64,000 nucleotides of DNA from an uncultured archaeon (GTDB lineage: Archaea; Asgardarchaeota; Heimdallarchaeia; Heimdallarchaeales; Heimdallarchaeaceae), in the NCBI GenBank assembly GCA_964534625.1, contig CAZHRF010000002.1:85711-149710 (forward strand). Direction: 5' to 3'. The stretch's first letter is position 1. Each line of letters starts with the position of its first letter. The position numbers and the translations under genes are program-made. Under the pieces are notes generated by a model. The model was not told the origin of the DNA. It did not search any database and saw only the letters and a program-made list of their open reading frames with translations. Of this stretch, positions 27,558 through 40,076 are shown piece by piece.

Positions 27558-27669
27558 CTTTATTTTAGTTATTTGCTTAAATCAAAGATGACAAAGTATA
27601 AATTCAATCTATTCTTACGACAACAATAACTAATAAATATTAGTTGCATTAATACATGATGTGAATATT

Positions 27670-28725
27670 ATGAGCCCAGTAGCAGAAATGACACGTGCTG
27701 TCGGTGTTGATTTAGGTACTAGTACCATTAAATTAATTTCAGGGGAAAAAATGTTTAAACTACCTTCAGTTATTGGTACACCTAACCCTGGATGGGGTGG
27801 CATGTCTCAAGATAAAACATGGCAAAATAATTTGATTATTGAAGATGTTAATAAAAGTGAATTATATATTGGCGAATTAGCAAGGCTTCAAAGTGAAATA
27901 AGAAAACCTTTAGCATCTGAAGGCAAAATGAAATCTATTGATAACAGCCTTTTGGCTCTTAAAGCTGCTCTAAGTTTGACAATGGAATCTACTTATGAAC
28001 AATTTATAGTCGCAACTGGTGTTCCAATTGCCACAGGAATTGAGGAAAGCAAAATGCTTAGTAAGGGATTAAAAGGCACGCATGAGATCAAGGTTAGAAA
28101 TGATGCCACAGGTGAAACTAAGAATCTAAAAATCTTAATTGAACAAGCTTATGTCTTACCTGAACCCTATGGTACCTACTACACCACATTAAAGGATTTA
28201 GGTGTTAAGTCCGCAGTTGATTCTGTAATCGTTGATATTGGACATGGTACTACAGATCTATTATGCATGTATAAGGGAAATATGATGAGAGCTGCATCTG
28301 GCTCTTTAGAAGAAGCAACTGACAGTTTAACCAATGCTTTAGCAAGAGCAATACAAGAGAAAACAGGTAAGATAATTAGGCCTTTTGATTTAATGAAGGC
28401 TATAGAAGAAGGAAAACGTCAAGTTTTAGTTACAGGTAAGGCTTTAGATATTGGTTCTGCTATTGATCAAGCCGTTGCGTCGATTTCTGAAGTAATAATT
28501 GATGAAACGAACCGTTTACTTAACAATTTACCACCAGATGCGTGGATTGAGAAAGTCATTGTTTGTGGTGGTGGCGCATATATCTTTGGTTCATATCTCA
28601 AACAAGCTTTCTTCGAAGCAGATATCGTTAAATCAATTGAAGAAGTTATCATTCCAGAAAACTCTGTTATGTCAAACGCAAGAGGTTTTGAGCAAATAGC
28701 AAATGCCAAACTAAAAAAGAAATAA
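27670..28725 (+). CDS. Actin-fold ATPase, ParM/StbA (Ta0583-like) family
   Basis: VGVDLGTSTIK (phosphate 1), VLPEPYG, IVDIGHGTTD (phosphate 2), VCGGGA, SNARGF. Confidence 0.88.
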   Translation: MSPVAEMTRAVGVDLGTSTIKLISGEKMFKLPSVIGTPNPGWGGMSQDKTWQNNLIIEDVNKSELYIGELARLQSEIRKPLASEGKMKSIDNSLLALKAALSLTMESTYEQFIVATGVPIATGIEESKMLSKGLKGTHEIKVRNDATGETKNLKILIEQAYVLPEPYGTYYTTLKDLGVKSAVDSVIVDIGHGTTDLLCMYKGNMMRAASGSLEEATDSLTNALARAIQEKTGKIIRPFDLMKAIEEGKRQVLVTGKALDIGSAIDQAVASISEVIIDETNRLLNNLPPDAWIEKVIVCGGGAYIFGSYLKQAFFEADIVKSIEEVIIPENSVMSNARGFEQIANAKLKKK

Positions 28726-28752: not shown

Positions 28753-29496
28753 TTATTCCATTTGGTTCTTTTTCCTCTCAAGAAACAAGACGTATTGAGG
28801 TCCAAATGCCATGTAAATTAACATCCATACAGATAATACATAGCCTGGATATTTCATCAAATCAAATGGTAACACTGCAATTGATAGAATAATTATTGTG
28901 GTAGAGATAACCCAGAACAAATCAAATGCCTTCCAATCTCCTTTAAATGAAGGAAACGGCGTTTTCGTTATCATAAATATTGCAACAGCTAGTGTTGTAA
29001 CTAAGATGGCCCATTCAGGTGTTTCCTCTAAAATTATAAGAGAACCTATTACCATGGCTGCAAATGGTGAAGGAACCCCCTCAAAATAAAGGGTAAAAAG
29101 AGGATCTCTTTTTGTAAATCTATATAAGCGATATATGGCTGCAATAAAGTAGATTAAACCTGACATTATCCCTGCAACCACATGAAAGTTTTTTATATAA
29201 AAACCAAGAAATATCGAAGGGAGTAAAGCAAAAGTAACTGCATCTACAATTGTATCAATGTCAACAGCTAAAATCTCTGACAATCCACTTATTCTAGCTA
29301 GTTTTCCATCAGTAAAATCTAAGATACAACAAACAGCGAGAACTTTAGGAAACCATACTATATAATTTGTAAACGATTTAAACATGTATATTATGCTAAA
29401 TATTGCCAATAAAAAGCTAGAAAGGGTCATTAAATTAGCTACTATCCAGCATATATACTTTATTATTTTATTTTCCAAAACGATTTTAAATTTCAT
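28753..29496 (-). CDS. pssA: CDP-alcohol phosphatidyltransferase (archaetidylserine synthase)
   Basis: ANLMT, DFTDGKLAR...DTIVD, RLYRF, FEGVPSP; adjacent to psd. Confidence 0.85.
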   Translation of the reverse strand: MKFKIVLENKIIKYICWIVANLMTLSSFLLAIFSIIYMFKSFTNYIVWFPKVLAVCCILDFTDGKLARISGLSEILAVDIDTIVDAVTFALLPSIFLGFYIKNFHVVAGIMSGLIYFIAAIYRLYRFTKRDPLFTLYFEGVPSPFAAMVIGSLIILEETPEWAILVTTLAVAIFMITKTPFPSFKGDWKAFDLFWVISTTIIILSIAVLPFDLMKYPGYVLSVWMLIYMAFGPQYVLFLERKKNQME

Positions 29497-29514
29497 GATA
29501 ATAGGCCTCGAAAA

Positions 29515-30201
29515 TTAATTGAAAGTTGCAAGTAATGTTATTCCAGCGCGTACTGATTGATATTCTTTTACTTGAATGGAGATATTTCTTTCCGTTTCTA
29601 TTTCTAAGTGAGTTATGGATCCAAAACGGATATGACCAATACTTGCACTTTGTTCAACTGTGTCATCAAAACTTACATATGCTATTGTTCTTCTTGCAAA
29701 AATGCCAGAAACTTGAATTACTTTGATCACCAGTGGTATTTTGTCATTACGTATTATGATTGTATTCCGTTGATTCTTCTTCGCATAATTGGGGAAGTAG
29801 ACTGGCCAGTGACTTCCTTTCTGGAAGTGCACTCCAGATACTTTTCCATTAATTGGACTTCTTGTCATGTGAACATCAAAAGGAGACATTCTTATAGTTA
29901 ATTTCCATGTTTTTCCTTCTTTTGTGATGTCTGTTACGATTCCATCAGCAGGAGAAATAATTCCTTTATTATTTATCGTTAAATCTCTTATAGGATCTCT
30001 AAATGTCCATATTATGAAGAAACTAAATATAATTATTGCTACTAATCCTAAACTGATTAACCAATATATTTTATTTAAGTATAATATTATTAGAATTGCG
30101 ATGCTAGCTAAAACCATATCAATTGCTAACATAATAAGGATATAATTAATTGTGTCTTTTGCAATTGACATGTTATGTCTCCAGAAGATTGATCCACTCA
30201 T
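29515..30201 (-). CDS. psd: Archaetidylserine/phosphatidylserine decarboxylase proenzyme
   Basis: FRDP, SPADG, MSPFDVH, RFGS self-cleavage motif. Confidence 0.92.
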   Translation of the reverse strand: MSGSIFWRHNMSIAKDTINYILIMLAIDMVLASIAILIILYLNKIYWLISLGLVAIIIFSFFIIWTFRDPIRDLTINNKGIISPADGIVTDITKEGKTWKLTIRMSPFDVHMTRSPINGKVSGVHFQKGSHWPVYFPNYAKKNQRNTIIIRNDKIPLVIKVIQVSGIFARRTIAYVSFDDTVEQSASIGHIRFGSITHLEIETERNISIQVKEYQSVRAGITLLATFN

Positions 30202-30271
30202 ATAAGAATCTTGTAACTTTCATCAAAACGTGAAAATATACACTTAAAAAATTATTGGATGAATTGTGAAA

Positions 30272-30322
30272 GAAAAAAATGAAAAATGAAAAAATAAAAT
30301 GAAAAAATAAAATGAAAAAAAA
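30272..30322 (-). terminator. T-rich tract with short repeats after the S8 protease; likely archaeal terminator
   Basis: Repeated aatgaaaaaataa-like units on +, giving poly-T runs on - immediately after the stop. Confidence 0.4.
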
Positions 30323-33300
30323 TTATCTTTTTTTACGTCTTATTTGTTTTGCTAATACTGATATTGCAGCTAATCCAATGAAGAGTCCAATTGAGCCAAA
30401 ATGTGTTTCTTTAGGTTCTTCACCTACTTTGATGATATATCTGACATCTAATTTATTTCCAGTAATGTCAGTTGCGGTTATATCTAAGATATTGGATCCG
30501 TCAATTAGGTCTTTTTTAAATATTGAAACTACACGTGTTTGTGATGTTACTTTAGTAACTGTTAAACTTTCTTCGTTCAATGTTGCTTTGACAGAAGCCA
30601 ATCCCATATCATCAAAAATGGTAAATTCAATTGTAGCTAAGTCTGTAGCAGTATTGTTCTCGAATCCTTCAGTATATGAAACGCTAGGTGCTGTAGTATC
30701 ATACATGAATTTAGCCAAGTATTTATCATCCTCAGTTATAACTTCAAAAGTATAATAACCATCTTGTTCATATATTAAGGAATAACTATATTGTCCAGTT
30801 GAATCTTCAGTTAGATCTACATTAGTGGTAGTTGTGGTTCCTGTTCCATCAGTAACATGCACATATGCTTGATAAAATATCTCTGGGGGATTAAATGTAA
30901 TATTAAAATCTACTCCCGTACTGGTTTCTATATAGGTTCCTGTTGTCCTATTGTTAGCTGTTAACCAATTAAATGTTTGTAGACCAAATAAATCGTTCTG
31001 AGTTCCCGGATTATTGTCATTGATGAAACCCGCAGTATCTATGTGGAAGTTGGTAGTTGATATGACAACCCTTGATCCTATTGGACTTTCCCAGGCCGAT
31101 GCAACTGGTTTTCCATCCCATGAAGAGAGCACAGTACTGTTACCTGTTTCATCAAGAAAAGTACCATAGTGATCTATTTTTGTAACACCTTCAGTAATCG
31201 CATGAATATTAGTGGTGCTAGCGGTAACAACATCCATATCTGTTGAATAGTACGAATCTGATACACTCACCCCATAGGGTTTTAATAATTCATTTGTCAT
31301 TGAAATATTATTTCCAAATACAAGACCATAGTCAGTATTATAATATTTACCAAGTAGATTAACGTATAAACCTCCTCCATTTTCGACAAAGTTATGAATT
31401 GCATCTATTTCTGATTCTGTTAATGGATTATGCGTGTCTGAATAACTATTCGGAAAATTAGGGTATTGAAGATTAAACGGATCAGCAAACCATATCATAT
31501 CATAACCATCTAATAAGTCTGAGGTAATAGTAGCACTTGTATAAGAGTTGACAGCTATACCTAGATCTTTTAAACCTTCAATGAAATGTCTATATTGACC
31601 CAAATAGTGATCGCTGCCCCAATTTGTATGCATCTTTGCATAAAAAACTTTTTTTATACCTCTGATAACTTCAAATTCTAGATGGGTCTCTGCAGTAACA
31701 CCTGCAGCTGTTTCAAATGTAATAATACCCGAATATACACCTAACGCAATCTCACTAGGAACATCAATCACGAGTTCATAGTTTTTAGTCCAGTTGGGAG
31801 AAGCAGATGTGGTGTTAAGTAAGCTAACTATCTCGGTTATATTACCTGTCAAAACAGGAGGAAGATCTTCATCTGGTGTTGATGAAACAGATTGGACATA
31901 TAGTTCTGCATGAAAACCTTGAGGTAGTGCATAGTATTCTTCTACCGGCATTTCAGGCACTGCCCACATTAGGACAGGAAAATCAGAACCATTAGTTGGT
32001 GCAGTTCTTACTGCGTGAAATGCGTCTCCAATATCAGCTAGTCCAGCACCAAAGGTAAGATAATTTTCATTTGGCTTTTGCGTAGCTGTAAGCATCATAG
32101 CAGCTTTTATTAAACCTGGATCGTAAGAAATTGTCTTTGCATTAAGTGCTTGTACTAATACATTCGTTGCACCAGCAATATGTGGTGAAGCCATTGATGT
32201 ACCTTGAAGTGAAGCATATGCAGTAGACGAATCAATATAAGGTGCCCAAATATTTACACCTGGTGCTGCAATATCTGGTTTTGGAAAACCATCGGCAGAA
32301 GGACCTATAGAGCTGAAATAAGCTCGGCTATTCGTAAGACCCAATGCAGCAACCGCAATGCAATCTGCAGCGGTAGCTGGGGTTCCTACAGTGTAATACC
32401 CATTAGCTCCTGAATTACCAGCTGAAGAAGCCACAGTAATACCTGATTTAGTAGTCTCACGTATCACTCTTTCAAGCAAATCTTCTCCCTCTCTATCTCC
32501 GCCACCAATACTGAGATTAATGGCATCAACTTTATCAAGACTAATGGCATAATCAAATGAAGCTACTAGTCCGGGGTTGGTTATTACATCACGTGTACTT
32601 CCATCACCTCGCCCAACTCTGCCAACAATAATCTCAGCTGATGGTGCCATACCTATGTAATCGGAATTTGCTTTTCCGGCACCCGCTGCGGTTCCTGCAA
32701 CGTGGGTTCCATGTCCTCCAATATCATCTATTGACGGATCATTTTCAGGATAACCATATTGTGACAAGATAAAAGATTTACTGTCTGCTGTGTTAATTCT
32801 GTCCCCAAAATCAACATGATCTTGATTAATCCCTGTGTCAATAATCATAATAATTGTGTTTTTTCCATTATACCCTTCATCCCAAAGACCACTAACGTTG
32901 ATAGCACCTGCTGTATTCACAGTATGCTTTATGCCTTCAGGAGTGGATAGTGTGTATATTGGTTCTTGAATTGGTTTAAGGGTTTCAAAACGTGTGTTTG
33001 TGACATCAATTACCTTTTCAACTCCAGGAATGCTTTGTAATTCTTCCTTCTTACTCAACATCTCATCGACAAAGACCATTTTTACATTATGAAAAACATG
33101 CTTTGGTTCGTTATTAATGAGAAATTCATTTAAATATTCATTTGATGTGAAATGAATAACAAAATTCCTTTCACTATCAATAAAGGGTTGAGAGAGATCT
33201 CTATTTAAACTATTATCGTGTTGTTCAACAATAACTGTCGCCTTTGGTGTGGGACCTAATCTCATCCCCATTTGTAAGGCAAAAATTGACAGCAATATGA

Positions 33301-33337
33301 AACCTAACACTAATTTCGTACTTCGGTTCATAGACAC
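30323..33337 (-). CDS. Membrane-anchored S8 subtilase, site-1 protease (SKI-1/MBTPS1)-like architecture
   Basis: Signal peptide and prodomain; IIDTG, GHGTHVAG, SAGN, GTSMASP catalytic motifs; downstream Ig-like and GATase-like (DUF4350-type) domain; C-terminal TM plus RRKKR. Confidence 0.85.
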   Translation of the reverse strand: MSMNRSTKLVLGFILLSIFALQMGMRLGPTPKATVIVEQHDNSLNRDLSQPFIDSERNFVIHFTSNEYLNEFLINNEPKHVFHNVKMVFVDEMLSKKEELQSIPGVEKVIDVTNTRFETLKPIQEPIYTLSTPEGIKHTVNTAGAINVSGLWDEGYNGKNTIIMIIDTGINQDHVDFGDRINTADSKSFILSQYGYPENDPSIDDIGGHGTHVAGTAAGAGKANSDYIGMAPSAEIIVGRVGRGDGSTRDVITNPGLVASFDYAISLDKVDAINLSIGGGDREGEDLLERVIRETTKSGITVASSAGNSGANGYYTVGTPATAADCIAVAALGLTNSRAYFSSIGPSADGFPKPDIAAPGVNIWAPYIDSSTAYASLQGTSMASPHIAGATNVLVQALNAKTISYDPGLIKAAMMLTATQKPNENYLTFGAGLADIGDAFHAVRTAPTNGSDFPVLMWAVPEMPVEEYYALPQGFHAELYVQSVSSTPDEDLPPVLTGNITEIVSLLNTTSASPNWTKNYELVIDVPSEIALGVYSGIITFETAAGVTAETHLEFEVIRGIKKVFYAKMHTNWGSDHYLGQYRHFIEGLKDLGIAVNSYTSATITSDLLDGYDMIWFADPFNLQYPNFPNSYSDTHNPLTESEIDAIHNFVENGGGLYVNLLGKYYNTDYGLVFGNNISMTNELLKPYGVSVSDSYYSTDMDVVTASTTNIHAITEGVTKIDHYGTFLDETGNSTVLSSWDGKPVASAWESPIGSRVVISTTNFHIDTAGFINDNNPGTQNDLFGLQTFNWLTANNRTTGTYIETSTGVDFNITFNPPEIFYQAYVHVTDGTGTTTTTNVDLTEDSTGQYSYSLIYEQDGYYTFEVITEDDKYLAKFMYDTTAPSVSYTEGFENNTATDLATIEFTIFDDMGLASVKATLNEESLTVTKVTSQTRVVSIFKKDLIDGSNILDITATDITGNKLDVRYIIKVGEEPKETHFGSIGLFIGLAAISVLAKQIRRKKR

Positions 33338-33487
33338 GTCTTAGTTCATCCATTCATAAATTTTTTCTAGTGGTGTTTTATTAATTATTTCAGCTTTTTA
33401 TAGCGCATTTCATGGTAAACATTTAATTAGGCTGACAAAAAACAGAAGATAGAGATAAATAACATGGGTTTATCATAAACACATAGG

Positions 33488-33538
33488 ACAATGAATGATT
33501 TGGGAATAGAATAACAATGAATAATCTGGGAATAGAAT
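33488..33538 (+). repeat. 26-bp-period direct repeat duplicating the HMG-CoA synthase start; creates uORF MNDLGIE* (33491-33514)
   Basis: acaatgaatgatttgggaatagaat versus acaatgaataatctgggaatagaat. Confidence 0.85.
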
Positions 33539-34557
33539 CTTATGGTATATATATACCAATATATCGGATTTCAATTGAAGAGATTGCAAAAATATGGGAT
33601 GAAGATGCAACAGAGTTGAAATCCCAATTACAAGTATTTAGTAAATCAGTACCCGCAAATGATGAAGATGTTGTAACCATGGCAGTAGAAGCAACAAAAA
33701 ATGCAATTAGCATTTGGTCTGGTGATTCCAAAGATATTGGAGCTCTTTATGCTGGGAGTGAATCTCATCCTTATGCAGTAAAACCAACAGCTACTATTGT
33801 TGGTGCTGCTATTGATGCTGAACCAACTTATACTGCTGCAGACTTAGAATTTGCTTGTAAAGCTGGAACTGCAGGTATACAGATGTGTATTGGTCTAATT
33901 GCGTCCAACATAATTAAGAAGGGAATAGCTATTGGAGCTGACAGTAGTCAAGCAAAACCAAGTGATCCTTTGGAATATACTGCTGGTGCGGGTGCTGCTG
34001 CCTTCATTATTGGTAAAGACAAAGTAATTGCCAATCTAGATGGGACATATTCGGTGACAACTGATACCCCCGATTTTTGGAGAAGAGAAGAAGCTGCCTA
34101 TCCATCTCATGGTCAACGTTTTACAGGAAAACCAGCTTATTTTCGACATGTTATTGATGCTACAAAGGGTTTAATGGAAAAATTAAATAGTTCTCCTGAT
34201 GATTATGATCATGTAACTTTTCATCAACCAAATGCAAAATTTCCTCTTGCAGTAGCCAAAATGTTAGGGTTTTCAAAGGAACAAATAATGGGCAGTTTGG
34301 CATGTCAATATATTGGTAATACATATTCTGGATCCTCTATGATAGGATTAGCAGCTATACTTGATGAAGCAAAACCAGGAGAAAAAGTATTGATGACTTC
34401 ATATGGGAGTGGAGCGGGTAGTGATGCTTTTGCTTTTACAATTACTGATGAAATAGCTGAAATTACCTCGGAAAATACTGTTAAGAAGTATATAGAGAAA
34501 AAAAAAGAGATCACATATGGAGAATATGCAAAATTAAAAGGTATATTAAAGGTGTAA
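33517..34557 (+). CDS. mvaS: Hydroxymethylglutaryl-CoA synthase (archaeal type)
   Basis: GSESHPYAVKP, DLEFACKAGT, DTPDFWRR, FHQPN, IGNTYSG, SYGSGAGSD. Confidence 0.96.
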   Translation: MNNLGIESYGIYIPIYRISIEEIAKIWDEDATELKSQLQVFSKSVPANDEDVVTMAVEATKNAISIWSGDSKDIGALYAGSESHPYAVKPTATIVGAAIDAEPTYTAADLEFACKAGTAGIQMCIGLIASNIIKKGIAIGADSSQAKPSDPLEYTAGAGAAAFIIGKDKVIANLDGTYSVTTDTPDFWRREEAAYPSHGQRFTGKPAYFRHVIDATKGLMEKLNSSPDDYDHVTFHQPNAKFPLAVAKMLGFSKEQIMGSLACQYIGNTYSGSSMIGLAAILDEAKPGEKVLMTSYGSGAGSDAFAFTITDEIAEITSENTVKKYIEKKKEITYGEYAKLKGILKV

Positions 34558-34560
34558 TTG

Positions 34561-35730
34561 ATGAACAAAGTATATGTTATAGGTTATGGTTTAACAACTT
34601 TTGGAGAACATTATGAGAAAGATGGAGCTGAGTTAGCAACAGAAGCTGTAAACTCTGCAATAGATGATAATAATATCTACAAAGAAGAAATAGACATGGC
34701 ATATTTTGGTACAATTAACTCTCCCGCTGATTATATGTCTTCAGTCCAATTTCACGCTCTCAAAAATTGTGGTTTAAAGATACCCTCGATCAGAATAGAA
34801 GCTGGAAATGCAAGTGGAGCTGCTGCTTTTAAACAAGCCTATTATTCAGTTAAAGGTGCAGCCACTGATTTAATTGTGGTGATAGGTGTAGAAAAATTAT
34901 CTGATTTTGTAAAACCCGAAATGATGGAAGAAATTGCAGCAAATACAATAGATTATCAATGGGAATATGAGATGGGGGCAACAGTAACGAGTCTCTATTC
35001 ATTAATAACTCAAGCTCACATGGAAAAACATGGTACAACTATGGAAGAGTTGGCTGCAATCCCAAGTAAAAATCATGCGCATGGTGTGAATAATCCTAAT
35101 GCCCAATTTCGTAGGGCTCTGTCAGCTGATAAATTCTTGAATGCAAAAAGAATAGCTGATCCAATAGGTAGATTTGATTTGGCAACACCATGTGATGGAG
35201 CTGTAGCTATCATTTTGGCATCTCAAGATTATGTTGAAAAAAACAATATAGAAAAAAAAGTGCCTGTGTTAGCGTCAACACAAGCATCTGATTATCTTGC
35301 ATTACATGATAGAAAAAGATTAGATGAATTTATTGCAACTAAAATAGCTGCAGATAAAGCATATAAACAAGCTGAGATTGGTCCGACTAAAATATCGTTT
35401 GCTGAAGTGCATGATTCTTATCCAATAGGTGAAATTCTTTCTTTAGAAGATTTGGGGTTTTTTGATAAAGGACAAGCTGCAAAAGCAGCAATTAACGGTA
35501 TTACTCATATTGGAGGAGAAAAACCAATTAACCCTAGTGGAGGATTAAAAGCACGTGGTGATCCTTATGGGGCAACGGGGTTGGCTCAAATAGTAGAAGT
35601 TGTCCAACAGCTACAAGGTAAGGCAGAAAAAAGGCAAATAGATGATGCAAAATATGGGTTAGCCCAAAATGTGTATGGAACAGGTGCAATGACATTTGTG
35701 CATATATTAGGTAAGGAGGAGATTCGATAA
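34561..35730 (+). CDS. Thiolase-fold protein of the HMGCS-thiolase-DUF35 triad, catalytic residues substituted
   Basis: Thiolase motifs KNH, DGA, INPSGGLKARG and GATG are present, but EAGNASG, HDSY and GDP replace EAACASG, HDCF and GHP. Confidence 0.9.
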   Translation: MNKVYVIGYGLTTFGEHYEKDGAELATEAVNSAIDDNNIYKEEIDMAYFGTINSPADYMSSVQFHALKNCGLKIPSIRIEAGNASGAAAFKQAYYSVKGAATDLIVVIGVEKLSDFVKPEMMEEIAANTIDYQWEYEMGATVTSLYSLITQAHMEKHGTTMEELAAIPSKNHAHGVNNPNAQFRRALSADKFLNAKRIADPIGRFDLATPCDGAVAIILASQDYVEKNNIEKKVPVLASTQASDYLALHDRKRLDEFIATKIAADKAYKQAEIGPTKISFAEVHDSYPIGEILSLEDLGFFDKGQAAKAAINGITHIGGEKPINPSGGLKARGDPYGATGLAQIVEVVQQLQGKAEKRQIDDAKYGLAQNVYGTGAMTFVHILGKEEIR

Positions 35731-36122
35731 TGAAACAACCACCAAAAATTTGGAGAGAGAGAAGACAAAGATATTTTATGGAAGGAATACGCTGTAATAA
35801 GTGTGGAAAAAAAACTTTCCCATCTGCAAGTTTCTGTCCAGAATGTGGAAGTGAAAATTTAACCCCCTATAAACTGGAAGAAAAAGGAAAAATACTCTAT
35901 TTTACAATTAGCCGAATTAATACTCAAAATATAATTCGTGCTACATCTAGCATACTAGCTTTAATTGAATTAGATGATGGGTTAAAGATCACTGCACAAA
36001 TAGTGGATATTGATCCTGATAATGTAAAAAGAGGGATGAGAGTTAAAAATGTGTTCCGAATATTGTCAAAAGATGAGAAAGATGGATTAATACAATATGG
36101 ATTAAAATTTAGTCCAGTCTAA
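35730..36122 (+). CDS. DUF35 Zn-ribbon/OB-fold scaffold protein
   Basis: CNKCG...CPECG, GMRV...FR, IQYGLKF; overlaps the thiolase stop. Confidence 0.93.
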   Translation: MKQPPKIWRERRQRYFMEGIRCNKCGKKTFPSASFCPECGSENLTPYKLEEKGKILYFTISRINTQNIIRATSSILALIELDDGLKITAQIVDIDPDNVKRGMRVKNVFRILSKDEKDGLIQYGLKFSPV

Positions 36123-37485
36123 TATTCATTATTGATTGGATCTTTAAGCCTTCTTTCTTTATTTTATCTTTTATAACTTGAATTTCTTGATTATACTCTT
36201 GCTGTATACCATGCTTGAAAGCATGGATTCCTCCTTGATGTAAATCATTGAGTACAATAATTCCCCAGCCACAACCATTCTTTTCTTCGTTACAATATTT
36301 GCAATACGAATTGTCTTTGGAAATTTCAACTTCAATATTGAGCTCTTGTAGCAAGTAATCAGGTATGTTATTTTGAACAGAAGAACTTTGATCACAGAAA
36401 GGACATTTTTCAGAGAACATATCACGAATTCTTCTTTTTGCTTCATCAAAAACAGAATTGAAAAAGTAACCTGTGGATGATTTTAATAACTCAGACATTG
36501 AAGTATCGGAAATTTCTGTAAGTTTTCCTATTTCTCCAATTTCATCAACATCAGCAATTTCTATCAAATTTTCAAATCCTTTAACGGTCGTCTTAATAAC
36601 TATAGGGCTATCAAAAGTTTCACGAACTTTTGCGCTGTCATTTGGTATATATGGTTTGATATAATTTTCATTTTTATCTTCAGTAATAATGTTGAAAAAT
36701 ACTGCATTGATCATTTCAGGAAATTTGGCTTGTTTTAGACTATAATGATGTACAGCATAATCCATGAGTTTTGGATGAATTAGTTCGTCTTCTTCGTCGA
36801 TTAAAAATATCATTATTACCTCATTTTTTGTTAAATTAACAGCAAGAGGAGGTAAGGTTGGTTTATCAAGATGTAATGTTTTTAGGATTCCCATACGTTT
36901 GGATGCCAAAATTGCTTCAATTTCCTTTACTGTATTTACAATATGTTCATCAATGATATTTTCTTGTGGTTCAGAAACCTCAAATCCTTGTTCTAAAATT
37001 GAATGAGCGAAATCATCATTCCAATAATTTTTCATCCATTCCCAGGGGATAAATATAACATTCTTCTTCTTATACCATAATTTGGTTTTTCTTGTTTCTC
37101 CATCATAGTAATAGAAAAGTGGATGATTACGAGAAGCTTTTTCCATTATAATAATAGGTACGGCTTTTAACCCTTGAAATTCTTTACAATTTTCTTCATC
37201 AACCCCCTCATGTAAAGCTTTAATGCAACTTAATAATTTTAAAGCGGGTTCCTGAAGTTTTTTTTCTATTTGATCATCACTTCCAGTAAAAGGATCACTA
37301 GCAGAGCCACTCCTAGCGCGAATACATAAAAGTAAATCATCTTTGTACGCACACATTATTACTCTTTTGTAACTTTCATAATAATCGACACCTTTAGTAT
37401 AAATCTGACACATATTAACTCTGAACCCTTTATCTTGAAGAAAAGCTTCAATAAGATTCATGAAGTTCGATTTGAACAAACTCAT
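36109..37485 (-). CDS. Hypothetical protein with C-terminal CxxC...CxxC motif
   Basis: 458-aa ORF; CPFC and CKYC near the C-terminus. Confidence 0.6.
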   Translation of the reverse strand: MSLFKSNFMNLIEAFLQDKGFRVNMCQIYTKGVDYYESYKRVIMCAYKDDLLLCIRARSGSASDPFTGSDDQIEKKLQEPALKLLSCIKALHEGVDEENCKEFQGLKAVPIIIMEKASRNHPLFYYYDGETRKTKLWYKKKNVIFIPWEWMKNYWNDDFAHSILEQGFEVSEPQENIIDEHIVNTVKEIEAILASKRMGILKTLHLDKPTLPPLAVNLTKNEVIMIFLIDEEDELIHPKLMDYAVHHYSLKQAKFPEMINAVFFNIITEDKNENYIKPYIPNDSAKVRETFDSPIVIKTTVKGFENLIEIADVDEIGEIGKLTEISDTSMSELLKSSTGYFFNSVFDEAKRRIRDMFSEKCPFCDQSSSVQNNIPDYLLQELNIEVEISKDNSYCKYCNEEKNGCGWGIIVLNDLHQGGIHAFKHGIQQEYNQEIQVIKDKIKKEGLKIQSIMNIRLD

Positions 37486-38163: not shown

Positions 38164-39381
38164 CTATGGTTCGGCTTGGAGTAGGTTATAAAGCCAAGGA
38201 TTTAAAGCTGAGGTTAAATCACGAATAATCATATCATTAATTGAAGCTGATTTTGCTGAACCACTTCGCCAAAAAATTGTGTACCCTTCACTTCTAGGCA
38301 AATAGACCTTTTGAACAATTAAGCTCCCTTCAGGATTCATGATGTCTCTTTTTAATAGTAAAGATGTAAAAGACTGTGTATTTTTTTCGGTTACTTCATG
38401 ATATGCTGAATATACATGTGATAGTACCATACTATGTTGTTTTTCAGAAATATATAAACCAATTAGAAGTCCTTTATCATCTAAAAGCGTCAACCCATCA
38501 AAATCATTAGCCACAGCAAATTCTTCCAATAAACTATTAATCAGTGAAAACACAGGAAATATTCTAGTTAAACCTTTAGCCATGCTTACATAGATGCTTG
38601 ATGGTGTGAATATGCTCGTGTAATGTATGTCATAAGCTAATTCATCGAAATGCTTAATTTTCTCTTTGATTTTTTCAACTAATATTGGTGCTTTGTGTTT
38701 AAGTATATAGGCTTTATCTTGGTCATATTTGTGGATTAATATAGATAGCTCTGGTGCCTCGTTAAGATATCTATATATGGAGAGGATTCTAATCAAGTAA
38801 TCAATTGAGGTTTGATAATTGTCTTCATCTTGGATATCGACTACATAAAATACAATCTTTGCATTTGCAAAGTATAATTCAGGTTTTTCTAAGTAAGCAT
38901 CGCGGAATGTTTTTTGTCCTCCCATATCAGTCACACGTAAAGGGATTCCAGCCAATTTAAGAACTTCTGGTTTGGCACCAAGAGTGGGAGAGGGACTACG
39001 ATAGATGGCTTTAAGGCGATCAATTATACTGGTTTTACCTGCCTCAGATAATCCTGTAAAAATGATTTTACCATGTTGTTCCACCCCCTCTGCTCTGTTA
39101 ATAATTATTTTAGATGCTATTGACCATTTTGTAGTAAGTTTTCTTGAAATTCCTAGATTTTTTTTCTTATCAACATCAGGCAAATCTTTAATCTTCTTAA
39201 TTCCTTTTTCTTTCAATATAGATGCATAAGTTGGTCCAATGCCTCGTAATTTGGAAACATCTAAACGAACGACATCGATTAAACTAAGTTTTGAGAAATC
39301 TTCGATACCAGTTAGCAAGAATTTGATATTATCTGGAATCACTTTTACACACTCTATACTTATTCTAATATCATTAGACAA
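38164..39381 (-). CDS. Rag/Arf-like small GTPase with N-terminal helix-hairpin-helix and C-terminal roadblock-like domain
   Basis: LRGIGPTYA (HhH); GLSEAGKTS, PTLG, DMGGQ, HKYD, TSIF; C-terminal LTLLDDKGLLIG. Confidence 0.8.
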   Translation of the reverse strand: MSNDIRISIECVKVIPDNIKFLLTGIEDFSKLSLIDVVRLDVSKLRGIGPTYASILKEKGIKKIKDLPDVDKKKNLGISRKLTTKWSIASKIIINRAEGVEQHGKIIFTGLSEAGKTSIIDRLKAIYRSPSPTLGAKPEVLKLAGIPLRVTDMGGQKTFRDAYLEKPELYFANAKIVFYVVDIQDEDNYQTSIDYLIRILSIYRYLNEAPELSILIHKYDQDKAYILKHKAPILVEKIKEKIKHFDELAYDIHYTSIFTPSSIYVSMAKGLTRIFPVFSLINSLLEEFAVANDFDGLTLLDDKGLLIGLYISEKQHSMVLSHVYSAYHEVTEKNTQSFTSLLLKRDIMNPEGSLIVQKVYLPRSEGYTIFWRSGSAKSASINDMIIRDLTSALNPWLYNLLQAEP

Positions 39382-39443
39382 GTGTTATTTTAAGTATTAT
39401 GCAATTCCCCAATAATTTAAATATACTGTATTATTTTTTGCAT

Positions 39444-40076
39444 ATGAAAGAAGAACAAAGGAATGGCGATTTAAGTTTTTGGAAGTCAAATTCTGTGACC
39501 AAAAATCTTCTCCTTTTGATATGGATTACTTATGGGTTTCTGACAATTGTAAATTTACTCTTTTTCACCCAAATTTCTAACTTATATGATGTATTGACTA
39601 TCTCTAATGGATTGTTATATCTCGTAGCGCAGAGTGGGAAAAGAATATTTCAAGGTCATATATATTTGTTATTTACTGCTATAATTGTACATATTGATTT
39701 TCTGCATCTCTTTTCTAATTCTCTTTTCCTAGTTATTTATGGTCTAAGGGCAGAAGAAAGTATGTATAACAAGCATATTTGTTTGGTGTTTATACTTTCT
39801 GCATTTTTAGGAAATATATTTTCTTTAATTATTTTTAATCCAAATACTATAACTGCAGGTTCAAGTGGGGGTGTATTTGGGTTGTTAGGAGCTGATCTTA
39901 TTTTGGGACATGAAGAAAATAATAGTAAATCTATATGGGTTTATATTGCCATAGGCTTTTTTTTTCTAATATTGTCCGCGGGACCCAATATCAATTTTTT
40001 CGCTCATTCAATAGGCATTATCATGGGCCTTTTTCTTACACGTTTTGTTTTTAAATCTCGGATTAACGATAAATAA
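39444..40076 (+). CDS. Rhomboid intramembrane serine protease
   Basis: H...HLFSN, AGSSGG (catalytic Ser), AHSIG (catalytic His), six TMs; longest ORF starts 39399. Confidence 0.9.
   Translation: MKEEQRNGDLSFWKSNSVTKNLLLLIWITYGFLTIVNLLFFTQISNLYDVLTISNGLLYLVAQSGKRIFQGHIYLLFTAIIVHIDFLHLFSNSLFLVIYGLRAEESMYNKHICLVFILSAFLGNIFSLIIFNPNTITAGSSGGVFGLLGADLILGHEENNSKSIWVYIAIGFFFLILSAGPNINFFAHSIGIIMGLFLTRFVFKSRINDK

Follow-up and report, generated by a model that had tools for sequence, protein, structure and literature searches.

In eukaryotes, site-1 protease (S1P, or MBTPS1) initiates the proteolysis by which SREBP, ATF6 and related factors are activated. In this pathway, membrane-bound transcription factors are cleaved under the control of SCAP and INSIG, with S2P carrying out the second step. 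S1P has a basic tail, and its ectodomain includes a GIFT (GATase1-like) domain. Such domains are also found in IFT52 and OST48, which are scaffold subunits of the intraflagellar-transport and oligosaccharyltransferase complexes, respectively. The archaeal subtilase Tk-SP of Thermococcus kodakarensis is a secreted enzyme and is not known to carry a membrane anchor. Here, these proteins are compared with the product of a gene for a subtilase (peptidase family S8) at positions 30323-33337 of the minus strand in a 64,000-nucleotide stretch of DNA, hereafter the window, from an uncultured archaeon of the Heimdallarchaeaceae (Asgardarchaeota; GenBank assembly GCA_964534625.1, contig CAZHRF010000002.1, positions 85,711 to 149,710 of the forward strand). 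The gene lies directly upstream of two phospholipid genes, psd and pssA, and is divergent from a gene for HMG-CoA synthase (HMGCS).

In the cryo-EM structure of human S1P, a Peptidase S8 subdomain (residues 187-478) is followed by a beta-sandwich called 'P-like' (479-616) and by a GIFT subdomain (617-998) (PMC11231238). In the literature searched, no account of the origin of S1P was found, nor any paper joining site-1 protease or MBTPS1 with Asgard archaea; as far as its main text and three supplements were available, PMC12872458 mentions neither MBTPS1 nor subtilisin. As described below, the Heimdallarchaeaceae protease shares the domain order and, in predicted models, the three-dimensional build of S1P. 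By contrast, a regulatory circuit that would link it to lipid synthesis finds no support beyond the gene order of one family, which for HMGCS narrows to three genera.

An S1P-like head on a membrane-tethered subtilase

The gene is 1004 codons long as listed and matches Peptidase_S8 (PF00082) at 3.9e-48. Its listed start is a GTG. Met3 (ATG at 33331) hardly varies among the aligned family members and is the likelier start. From the N to the C terminus, the following parts can be distinguished in the protein, all on the minus strand:

33254-33322, minus strand: N-terminal hydrophobic stretch (residues ~6-28), a signal peptide or signal anchor, from hydropathy windows, with a helix at 7-22 in the model
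32978-33175, minus strand: subtilisin-type propeptide (residues ~55-120), a beta-alpha-beta-beta-alpha-beta unit in the model
32000-32929, minus strand: S8 catalytic domain (residues 137-446), from Pfam, sequence and profile searches and structure alignment
31658-31999, minus strand: beta-sandwich (residues 447-560) at the position of the 'P-like' subdomain of S1P, from the predicted model
30950-31657, minus strand: GIFT (GATase1-like) domain (residues 561-796) of alpha/beta fold, from profile, Pfam and predicted model
30422-30949, minus strand: two Ig-like beta-sandwich domains that form a stalk (residues 797-972), from the strand pattern in the model and a weak Big_13 match at 895-964
30326-30406, minus strand: C-terminal membrane helix and basic tail (residues 978-1004), from hydropathy, with a helix at ~978-998 followed by RRKKR

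The protein carries the Asp-His-Ser triad typical of Peptidase S8, in the order seen in subtilisin, together with the oxyanion Asn. These residues (D167, H209, N308 for the oxyanion hole and S381) are invariant in 22 full-length sequences of the family, and their equivalents do not vary either across a more diverse set of 28 Asgard S8-GIFT sequences. Since the triad and the oxyanion residue are conserved both in the family and in these more diverse relatives, the protease should be active. In the predicted model, the S8 domain aligns with subtilisins over ~270 residues with an rmsd of 1.7-1.9 Å, and alignments to the pro-forms of subtilisin E, Tk-subtilisin and Tk-SP start at model residue 52-55 and take in the propeptide. 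In the whole protease there is a single cysteine, and 12 N-x-S/T sites are present. All 22 of the 22 family sequences close with a hydrophobic stretch and then a basic tail. The helix at ~978-998 and the RRKKR tail correspond to the type I anchor and short basic cytoplasmic tail of S1P, in agreement with the type I topology of the original prediction. The C-terminal 60 residues, like three relatives, match none of the sorting-signal models of NCBIfam.

In build, the resemblance to S1P is real. In a Foldseek search with the full-length AlphaFold model (mean pLDDT 80.0, pTM 0.72), the best matches are the S1P-SPRING entries 9csd_A (E = 6.5e-37) and 8uw8_A (E = 1.6e-34), with TM scores of 0.64-0.67 normalised on S1P over 734-749 columns, and the next match is Tk-SP at 1.7e-24. 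With VIA-align, 592 residues (model 137-797 on S1P 190-874) superpose on 8uw8_A as one rigid body, with a Z of 38.7 and an rmsd of 3.1 Å. This is by far the longest alignment in the VIA list, where the matches confined to subtilisin-like parts have a similar or higher Z but cover ~270-390 residues. In the predicted models, the S8 domain, the beta-sandwich and the GIFT domain are packed as a single head, as they are in S1P. A separate model of the sandwich and GIFT domains (residues 447-800; pLDDT 91.9, pTM 0.89) also has S1P as its top Foldseek match (3.1e-16; TM 0.64 on the query), and S1P is the only listed chain that VIA-align extends across both domains (309 residues, positions 7-351 of this model on S1P 478-875). 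The comparison of the post-catalytic region with MBTPS1 that had been suggested for this locus comes out in favor of an S1P-like build.

In the sequence, the original prediction had likened two motif stretches to S1P, one in the catalytic domain and one in the post-catalytic GATase-like domain. Both stretches, including GNNISMTNELL..., are present in the translation. Searched as a single sequence against the PDB, the C-terminal half of the protease retrieves nothing significant, and profiles were required. Built from 27 diverse Asgard proteins, a GIFT-domain profile (A2) retrieves S1P, over its residues 651-856, with an E value of 2.4e-9 (40 bits). When the sandwich is included (profile A3), the match improves to 2.8e-11 and begins at S1P residue 602. 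The post-catalytic GATase-like domain is thus a true GIFT domain, and on this point the original prediction is supported.

Affinities of the domains and the question of descent

The genome of the window (G000) and its relatives were searched under working labels: f1 stands for the family of this genome, g1-g4 for its genera. Of the 28 other f1 genomes searched, 25 encode a near-full-length match to the protease (E of 1.2e-194 or better), and one more has a fragment; the remaining two, which lack any match, have a completeness of 76% and 72%. In several other Asgard families, more distant matches take in the S8 domain and reach through the GIFT region, some of them at full length. The S8-sandwich-GIFT membrane subtilases are a widespread family in Asgard archaea.

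Several further members of this kind were encountered. A second, very divergent S8-sandwich-GIFT paralogue of 941 aa is encoded on contig 16 of the same genome (L073:5729-8554, plus strand); Pfam detects only its S8 domain, and hhalign relates it to profile A3 with a probability of 97.2%. Another Asgard class, of ~1250 aa (P0239, P0026, P0188, P0210; loci L056-L065), has a zinc ribbon on the cytoplasmic side of the membrane helix, beyond its end, and one of its members is from Odinarchaeia. This class forms its own branch in the S8 tree described below and gives the best scores with the S1P GIFT model (31.2 bits for P0239). Tandem copies of the S8 gene are seen in several genus g4 genomes (entries L033 (G026), L037 (G142), G154, G205, G274 and G283). 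G026 has a repeated segment with a truncated S8 copy, HMGCS and thiolase.

It is possible, and in our estimate somewhat doubtful, that the Asgard S8-sandwich-GIFT membrane subtilases represent the archaeal stock of eukaryotic S1P, the shared build having been inherited and not assembled twice. The common domain order, the superposition of 592 residues as one body, the homology of the GIFT domain by profile, with an alignment that continues from the end of the sandwich, and the membrane helix and basic tail common to both proteins all speak for such a descent. Language-model features, used here as a lead only, point the same way: the nearest cluster is from Thorarchaeota (0.96), and the following ones at 0.9 or above are nine eukaryotic MBTPS1 clusters, with 0.91 for those shown. 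In addition, the other best-matching solved GIFT proteins, IFT52 and OST48, are also eukaryotic.

The catalytic domain, however, has no special likeness to S1P. With a single sequence, it scores 121.6 bits against Tk-SP and 93.9 against S1P; with a family profile, the values are 193 and 149.6 bits. A profile wide enough to represent Asgard S8-GIFT proteins in general gives S1P 208 bits, below Tk-SP (277), Vpr (249) and ~48 entries for the subtilisins BPN', E and Carlsberg. All of the best 150 matches of the family profile among 1.84 billion representatives reach at least 229.8 bits, and human S1P (149.6) falls below them. When the S8 part is used alone, 30 of 30 Atlas matches are plain S8 clusters. 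In a word-based search with residues 252-311, in which 72 candidates were scored, the sole return was the near-identical P0002.

For the GIFT domain, IFT52 is a nearer relative than S1P is. With profile A2, it reaches 4.6e-16 and 62 bits, against 40 bits for S1P, and in the VIA comparison of the sandwich-GIFT model the order is IFT52 (Z 23.8, rmsd 2.4 Å, 204 residues), OST48 (Z 20.2) and S1P (Z 19.0). Among the 27 aligned relatives, Pfam detects IFT52_GIFT in 17 and MBTPS1_4th in 10. The latter model (PF23090, cut-off 27 bits) stays below its cut-off in the protease studied here, with 12.5 bits for the whole protein, 17.6 for the domain alone and 11.9 in the genome scan; the weak match, to the GNNISMTNELL... 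stretch, relates residues 673-705 to model positions 135-167. Of 301 Asgard genomes, 12 have a match above the cut-off, the highest at 30.8 bits, and none of the 28 other f1 genomes has a match at an E of 1e-4 or better. The model of the third domain of S1P (PF23094) has no match in any of the nine proteins scanned, at E values up to 5, although the predicted sandwich agrees with that of S1P in fold and position.

The phylogeny of S8 domains that had been proposed as a check was run in part. From a pool of 122 sequences, 30 were dropped for covering 230 profile positions or fewer, and the tree was built, with a quick tree search, from 28 Asgard S8-GIFT domains and 64 other subtilases, the best generic matches, with eukaryotic S1P not included. 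All 28 Asgard domains lie on one side of a branch with an SH-aLRT of 94, apart from the 64 others. This part of the check agrees with a coherent Asgard group, and because the 28 domains are grouped in this way, the tree fits a single old S8-GIFT fusion that would have occurred within Asgard archaea. The single group also counts in favor of the descent of S1P from this stock.

Tk-SP is instructive with regard to how much of the S1P build is distinctive. Its sequence gives the top match for the catalytic domain, and it also leads the VIA list (Z 44.1), with 389 residues aligned from the propeptide into the beta-sandwich. Since the S8 domain of Tk-SP is likewise followed by a beta-sandwich, only the addition of GIFT is specific to S1P among solved structures, a point against descent. 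In sum, orthology with S1P is not demonstrated, and several tests point the other way. Nevertheless, that an apparently active, surface-tethered subtilase built like S1P is part of a family spread across Asgard archaea makes it plausible, although less likely than not, that S1P has an archaeal root.

Lipid genes, probable transcription units and gene order around the protease

Family assignments in the window were made by Pfam and NCBIfam scans of its proteins. Around the protease gene, the following features are found:

28753-29496, minus strand: pssA-like CDP-alcohol phosphatidyltransferase (TIGR00473 at 56.7 bits, where the cut-off is 107; PF01066 at 28.6 bits)
29515-30201, minus strand: psd, phosphatidyl/archaetidylserine decarboxylase (PF02666 at 7.9e-28)
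30243-30252, minus strand: TATA-like element ~40-50 nt upstream of the psd ATG, the likely psd-pssA promoter, from the sequence of 10 loci
30253-30322, minus strand: T-rich stretch that directly follows the S8 stop (runs of 8, 6, 6, 5 and 7 T), a likely archaeal terminator, from the sequence of 10 loci
30323-33337, minus strand: S8-GIFT membrane subtilase gene
33338-33516, no strand: divergent spacer of 179 nt between the S8 gene and HMGCS, from the coordinates of the open reading frames
33517-34557, plus strand: archaeal HMG-CoA synthase (NF003274 at 514 bits)
34558-35730, plus strand: thiolase (Pfam and NCBIfam)
35730-36122, plus strand: DUF35/ChsH2-type OB fold with zinc ribbon (Pfam and NCBIfam)

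The six genes stand at the positions and on the strands assigned to them by the original prediction, with pssA, psd and the protease on one side and the divergent HMGCS, thiolase and DUF35 on the other, and the intergenic region that it had put at ~180 bp measures 179 nt. The HMGCS-thiolase-DUF35 set (33517-36122) accounts for the first steps of the archaeal mevalonate pathway; it is a neighbor of the protease gene, not a demonstrated member of one system with it. In psd, the FGS(I)T self-cleavage-type motif is visible in the translation. The assignment of pssA is the weakest of the six, with scores below the NCBIfam cut-offs, and the substrate of its product is suggested solely by the adjacent psd. 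By eye, the pssA-like protein seems to have an Ala where the second Gly of the CDP-alcohol motif would be expected. The genome encodes two CDP-OH transferases, of which the pssA-like protein is one. No second copy of psd was found in the genome, so psd and pssA here are a housekeeping pair and not a dedicated one.

The gap between the S8 gene and psd is 121 nt, whereas that between psd and pssA is 18 nt. T runs of five or more occupy the same position of the S8-psd spacer in 10 of the 10 loci examined. The spacers of these 10 loci also contain, downstream of the T runs, a TATA-like element, TTTT(T)AA(C/G), usually TTTTTAACA, of which L032 has a looser, T-rich version. From their arrangement, the T runs would be the terminator of the S8 gene and the TATA-like element a separate promoter for psd and pssA, so that the protease and the lipid pair are probably on separate transcripts. 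The T-rich part of the spacer (30253-30322, minus strand) is in itself a loose tandem repeat, with units such as TTTTCATTTTATTTT.

Conservation of gene order was studied in 20 loci, 10 of f1 and 10 of five other families, by tblastn with the window proteins. The arrangement S8-psd-pssA followed by an actin-like gene on the opposite strand is seen in 9 of the 10 f1 loci, and the tenth meets a contig end after a second S8 copy. By comparison of coordinates, of the 17 f1 genomes with a psd match (G000 counted), 13 have it beside the S8 gene; in three of the remaining four, the genes are on separate short contigs, and G142 is ambiguous. Adjacency to HMGCS-thiolase-DUF35 is still more local. It is limited to G000, G003, G074 and G026, which represent genera g1-g3, while the seven loci of genus g4 all lack it; in one of these seven, L036, the upstream genes identified by Pfam are PhzF-like, epimerase, Hsp70 and DnaJ.

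Outside f1, neither psd nor pssA nor HMGCS was found within ~8 kb of the S8 gene in the 10 loci of five other families (10 of 10 by tblastn, with the nearest genes checked by Pfam in 8 of 10), and psd is instead found on a different contig or at a distance of hundreds of kb. The S8 neighbors there are ThiN; parts of an oligopeptide ABC transporter; a ROK kinase and a P-type ATPase; and an amidohydrolase with a glutamine synthetase. A protease-pssA/psd-HMGCS synteny across Asgard archaea, which the original prediction had proposed to test, is not borne out. The adjacency to psd and pssA appears to be a gene order inherited within one family, and the HMGCS neighborhood a still narrower one.

The reading first proposed for the locus was that an S1P-like proteolysis frees a membrane-bound regulator that controls isoprenoid and phospholipid genes, including the divergent HMGCS. 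It can appeal to an S1P-like build that is real, to the 179-nt spacer shared with HMGCS and to three M50 (S2P-family) peptidases in the genome. However, M50 peptidases were also found in 14 of 14 control genomes, and their presence consequently carries no weight. A sterol-sensing domain has no match in this genome, although the same model matches in seven control genomes. HLH and INSIG gave no match either; because the controls were also silent for both, these blanks are uninformative. A membrane-tethered transcription factor was equally looked for, in a search limited to the HLH family, and none was identified; nor was a candidate substrate. In the model, moreover, a catalytic head raised on a stalk of two Ig-like domains would fit poorly with cutting a short, membrane-adjacent loop. 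Together with the confinement of the lipid-gene adjacency to one family, of HMGCS to four genomes, and the T runs and promoter-like element that split S8 from psd, these observations make an ancestral or present-day circuit of this kind exceedingly improbable. A combined view, in which S1P descends from this Asgard family and the adjacency of psd-pssA, and in three genera of HMGCS, reflects an old functional tie between protease and membrane lipids, is hardly more probable.

A different link between protease and lipid genes is suggested by archaeosortases. In Methanosarcina, artA lies beside pssA and pssD; in Haloferax, both PssA and PssD are required for ArtA-dependent processing, and archaetidylethanolamine has been proposed as the lipid acceptor of the pathway, in which the archaeosortase acts through an active-site cysteine (PMC7157517). 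By analogy, the protease, psd and pssA might form an envelope module, for instance one for surface-protein processing that requires archaetidylethanolamine. The constancy of the S8-psd-pssA block within f1 and the single copy of psd would suit such a module, and in both cases a membrane protease gene adjoins two genes for making archaetidylethanolamine. However, the protease of the artA-pssA-pssD system is an archaeosortase, of a family unrelated to S8. The Heimdallarchaeaceae genome has a heimdallarchaeosortase of its own (NF045528 at 239.9 bits against a cut-off of 130), which is encoded on contig 34 (L071:1246-1980, plus strand), away from psd and pssA. These two genes remain far below the NCBIfam models for a 'protein sorting system' (NF038086, 36.8 bits against a cut-off of 200; NF038088, 116.2 against 240), and, as noted above, the protease tail matches no known C-terminal sorting signal. 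The T runs and promoter-like element between S8 and psd, as well as the lack of this adjacency in the 10 loci of five other families, also argue against a module, which we regard as very unlikely.

Other genes near the locus were noted in passing. The actin-like gene of the conserved block (27661-28725, plus strand; Pfam ALP_N and archaeal MreB-like_C) is beside pssA in all nine f1 loci with intact flanks and is 76-79% identical across genera, far above its neighbors. On the other side, 36109-37485 (minus strand) encodes a protein of 458 aa without a Pfam or NCBIfam match, which adjoins DUF35 in G074, G026 and G003 at 50-53% identity. Further on, 38164-39381 (minus strand) and 39399-40076 (plus strand) hold a Gtr1/RagA-Arf-type small GTPase with an N-terminal extension of ~90 residues, beside a rhomboid protease. 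In G003, the rhomboid and the CxxCxxCC protein are also close to the locus.

Proposed role and comparison with known proteases

The explanation that best accounts for the whole is, with moderate confidence, an active, tethered subtilase zymogen with an S1P-like head that cleaves surface proteins and takes no part in a circuit of the SREBP type. The zymogen would be exported and then held on the outer face of the membrane by its C-terminal helix and short basic tail. Its head, composed of the S8, beta-sandwich and GIFT domains packed as in the S1P ectodomain, would stand on the stalk of two Ig-like domains. Once the propeptide has been removed autocatalytically, the mature enzyme may cleave extracellular or cell-surface proteins, which from the anatomy is its most likely role; this could serve the maturation or shedding of surface proteins or the supply of peptides. 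The S8 gene and psd-pssA would be separately transcribed units, and neither would belong to an SREBP-type regulated proteolysis. Peptide supply receives some backing from relatives in two other families (L046 and L047), which are beside oligopeptide ABC-transporter genes.

Several observations weigh against this explanation. The arrangement of the domains with respect to each other is a prediction, with a pTM of 0.72 for the full model. The S8-psd-pssA-actin-like block is kept in 9 of 9 f1 loci with intact flanks, in three other genera and despite differing flanks, even though the protease is only 41-47% identical by tblastn in those loci; this may leave room for an unseen functional tie between S8 and psd-pssA. 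Finally, the peptide-uptake neighbors belong to other families and not to f1.

An apparently active archaeal protease whose head superposes on that of human S1P is a concrete candidate for the origin of S1P and a tractable prokaryotic model of how a GIFT domain supports a subtilase. For the lipid connection, the locus is mostly a caution, as an S1P-lipid story here rests on the gene order of one family, which probably spans separate transcripts.

In comparison with solved structures, the protease has three sets of relatives, each of which covers a different portion of it. Tk-SP (PDB 3AFG, 9UES) resembles its N-terminal half, but the aligned Tk-SP chain ends inside the sandwich (model residue 550) and has no GIFT domain. 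IFT52 and OST48 (PDB 5FMR, 5FMS, 8B6L, 6S7T) are the best matches for the GIFT domain alone, but they have no protease and, in the aligned part, no preceding sandwich. S1P (PDB 8UW8, 8UWC, 9CSD) is in turn distinguished from the Asgard protease by several features. The latter has two extra Ig-like domains ahead of the membrane helix, a shorter GIFT domain (~236 residues, against 617-998 in S1P) and a single cysteine in all; it would be placed at the archaeal cell surface, whereas S1P resides in the Golgi, and no SPRING, SCAP, INSIG or SREBP context was found around it. Nevertheless, it has in common with S1P the propeptide, the S8 domain, the beta-sandwich, the GIFT domain, the membrane helix and the basic tail, in that order.

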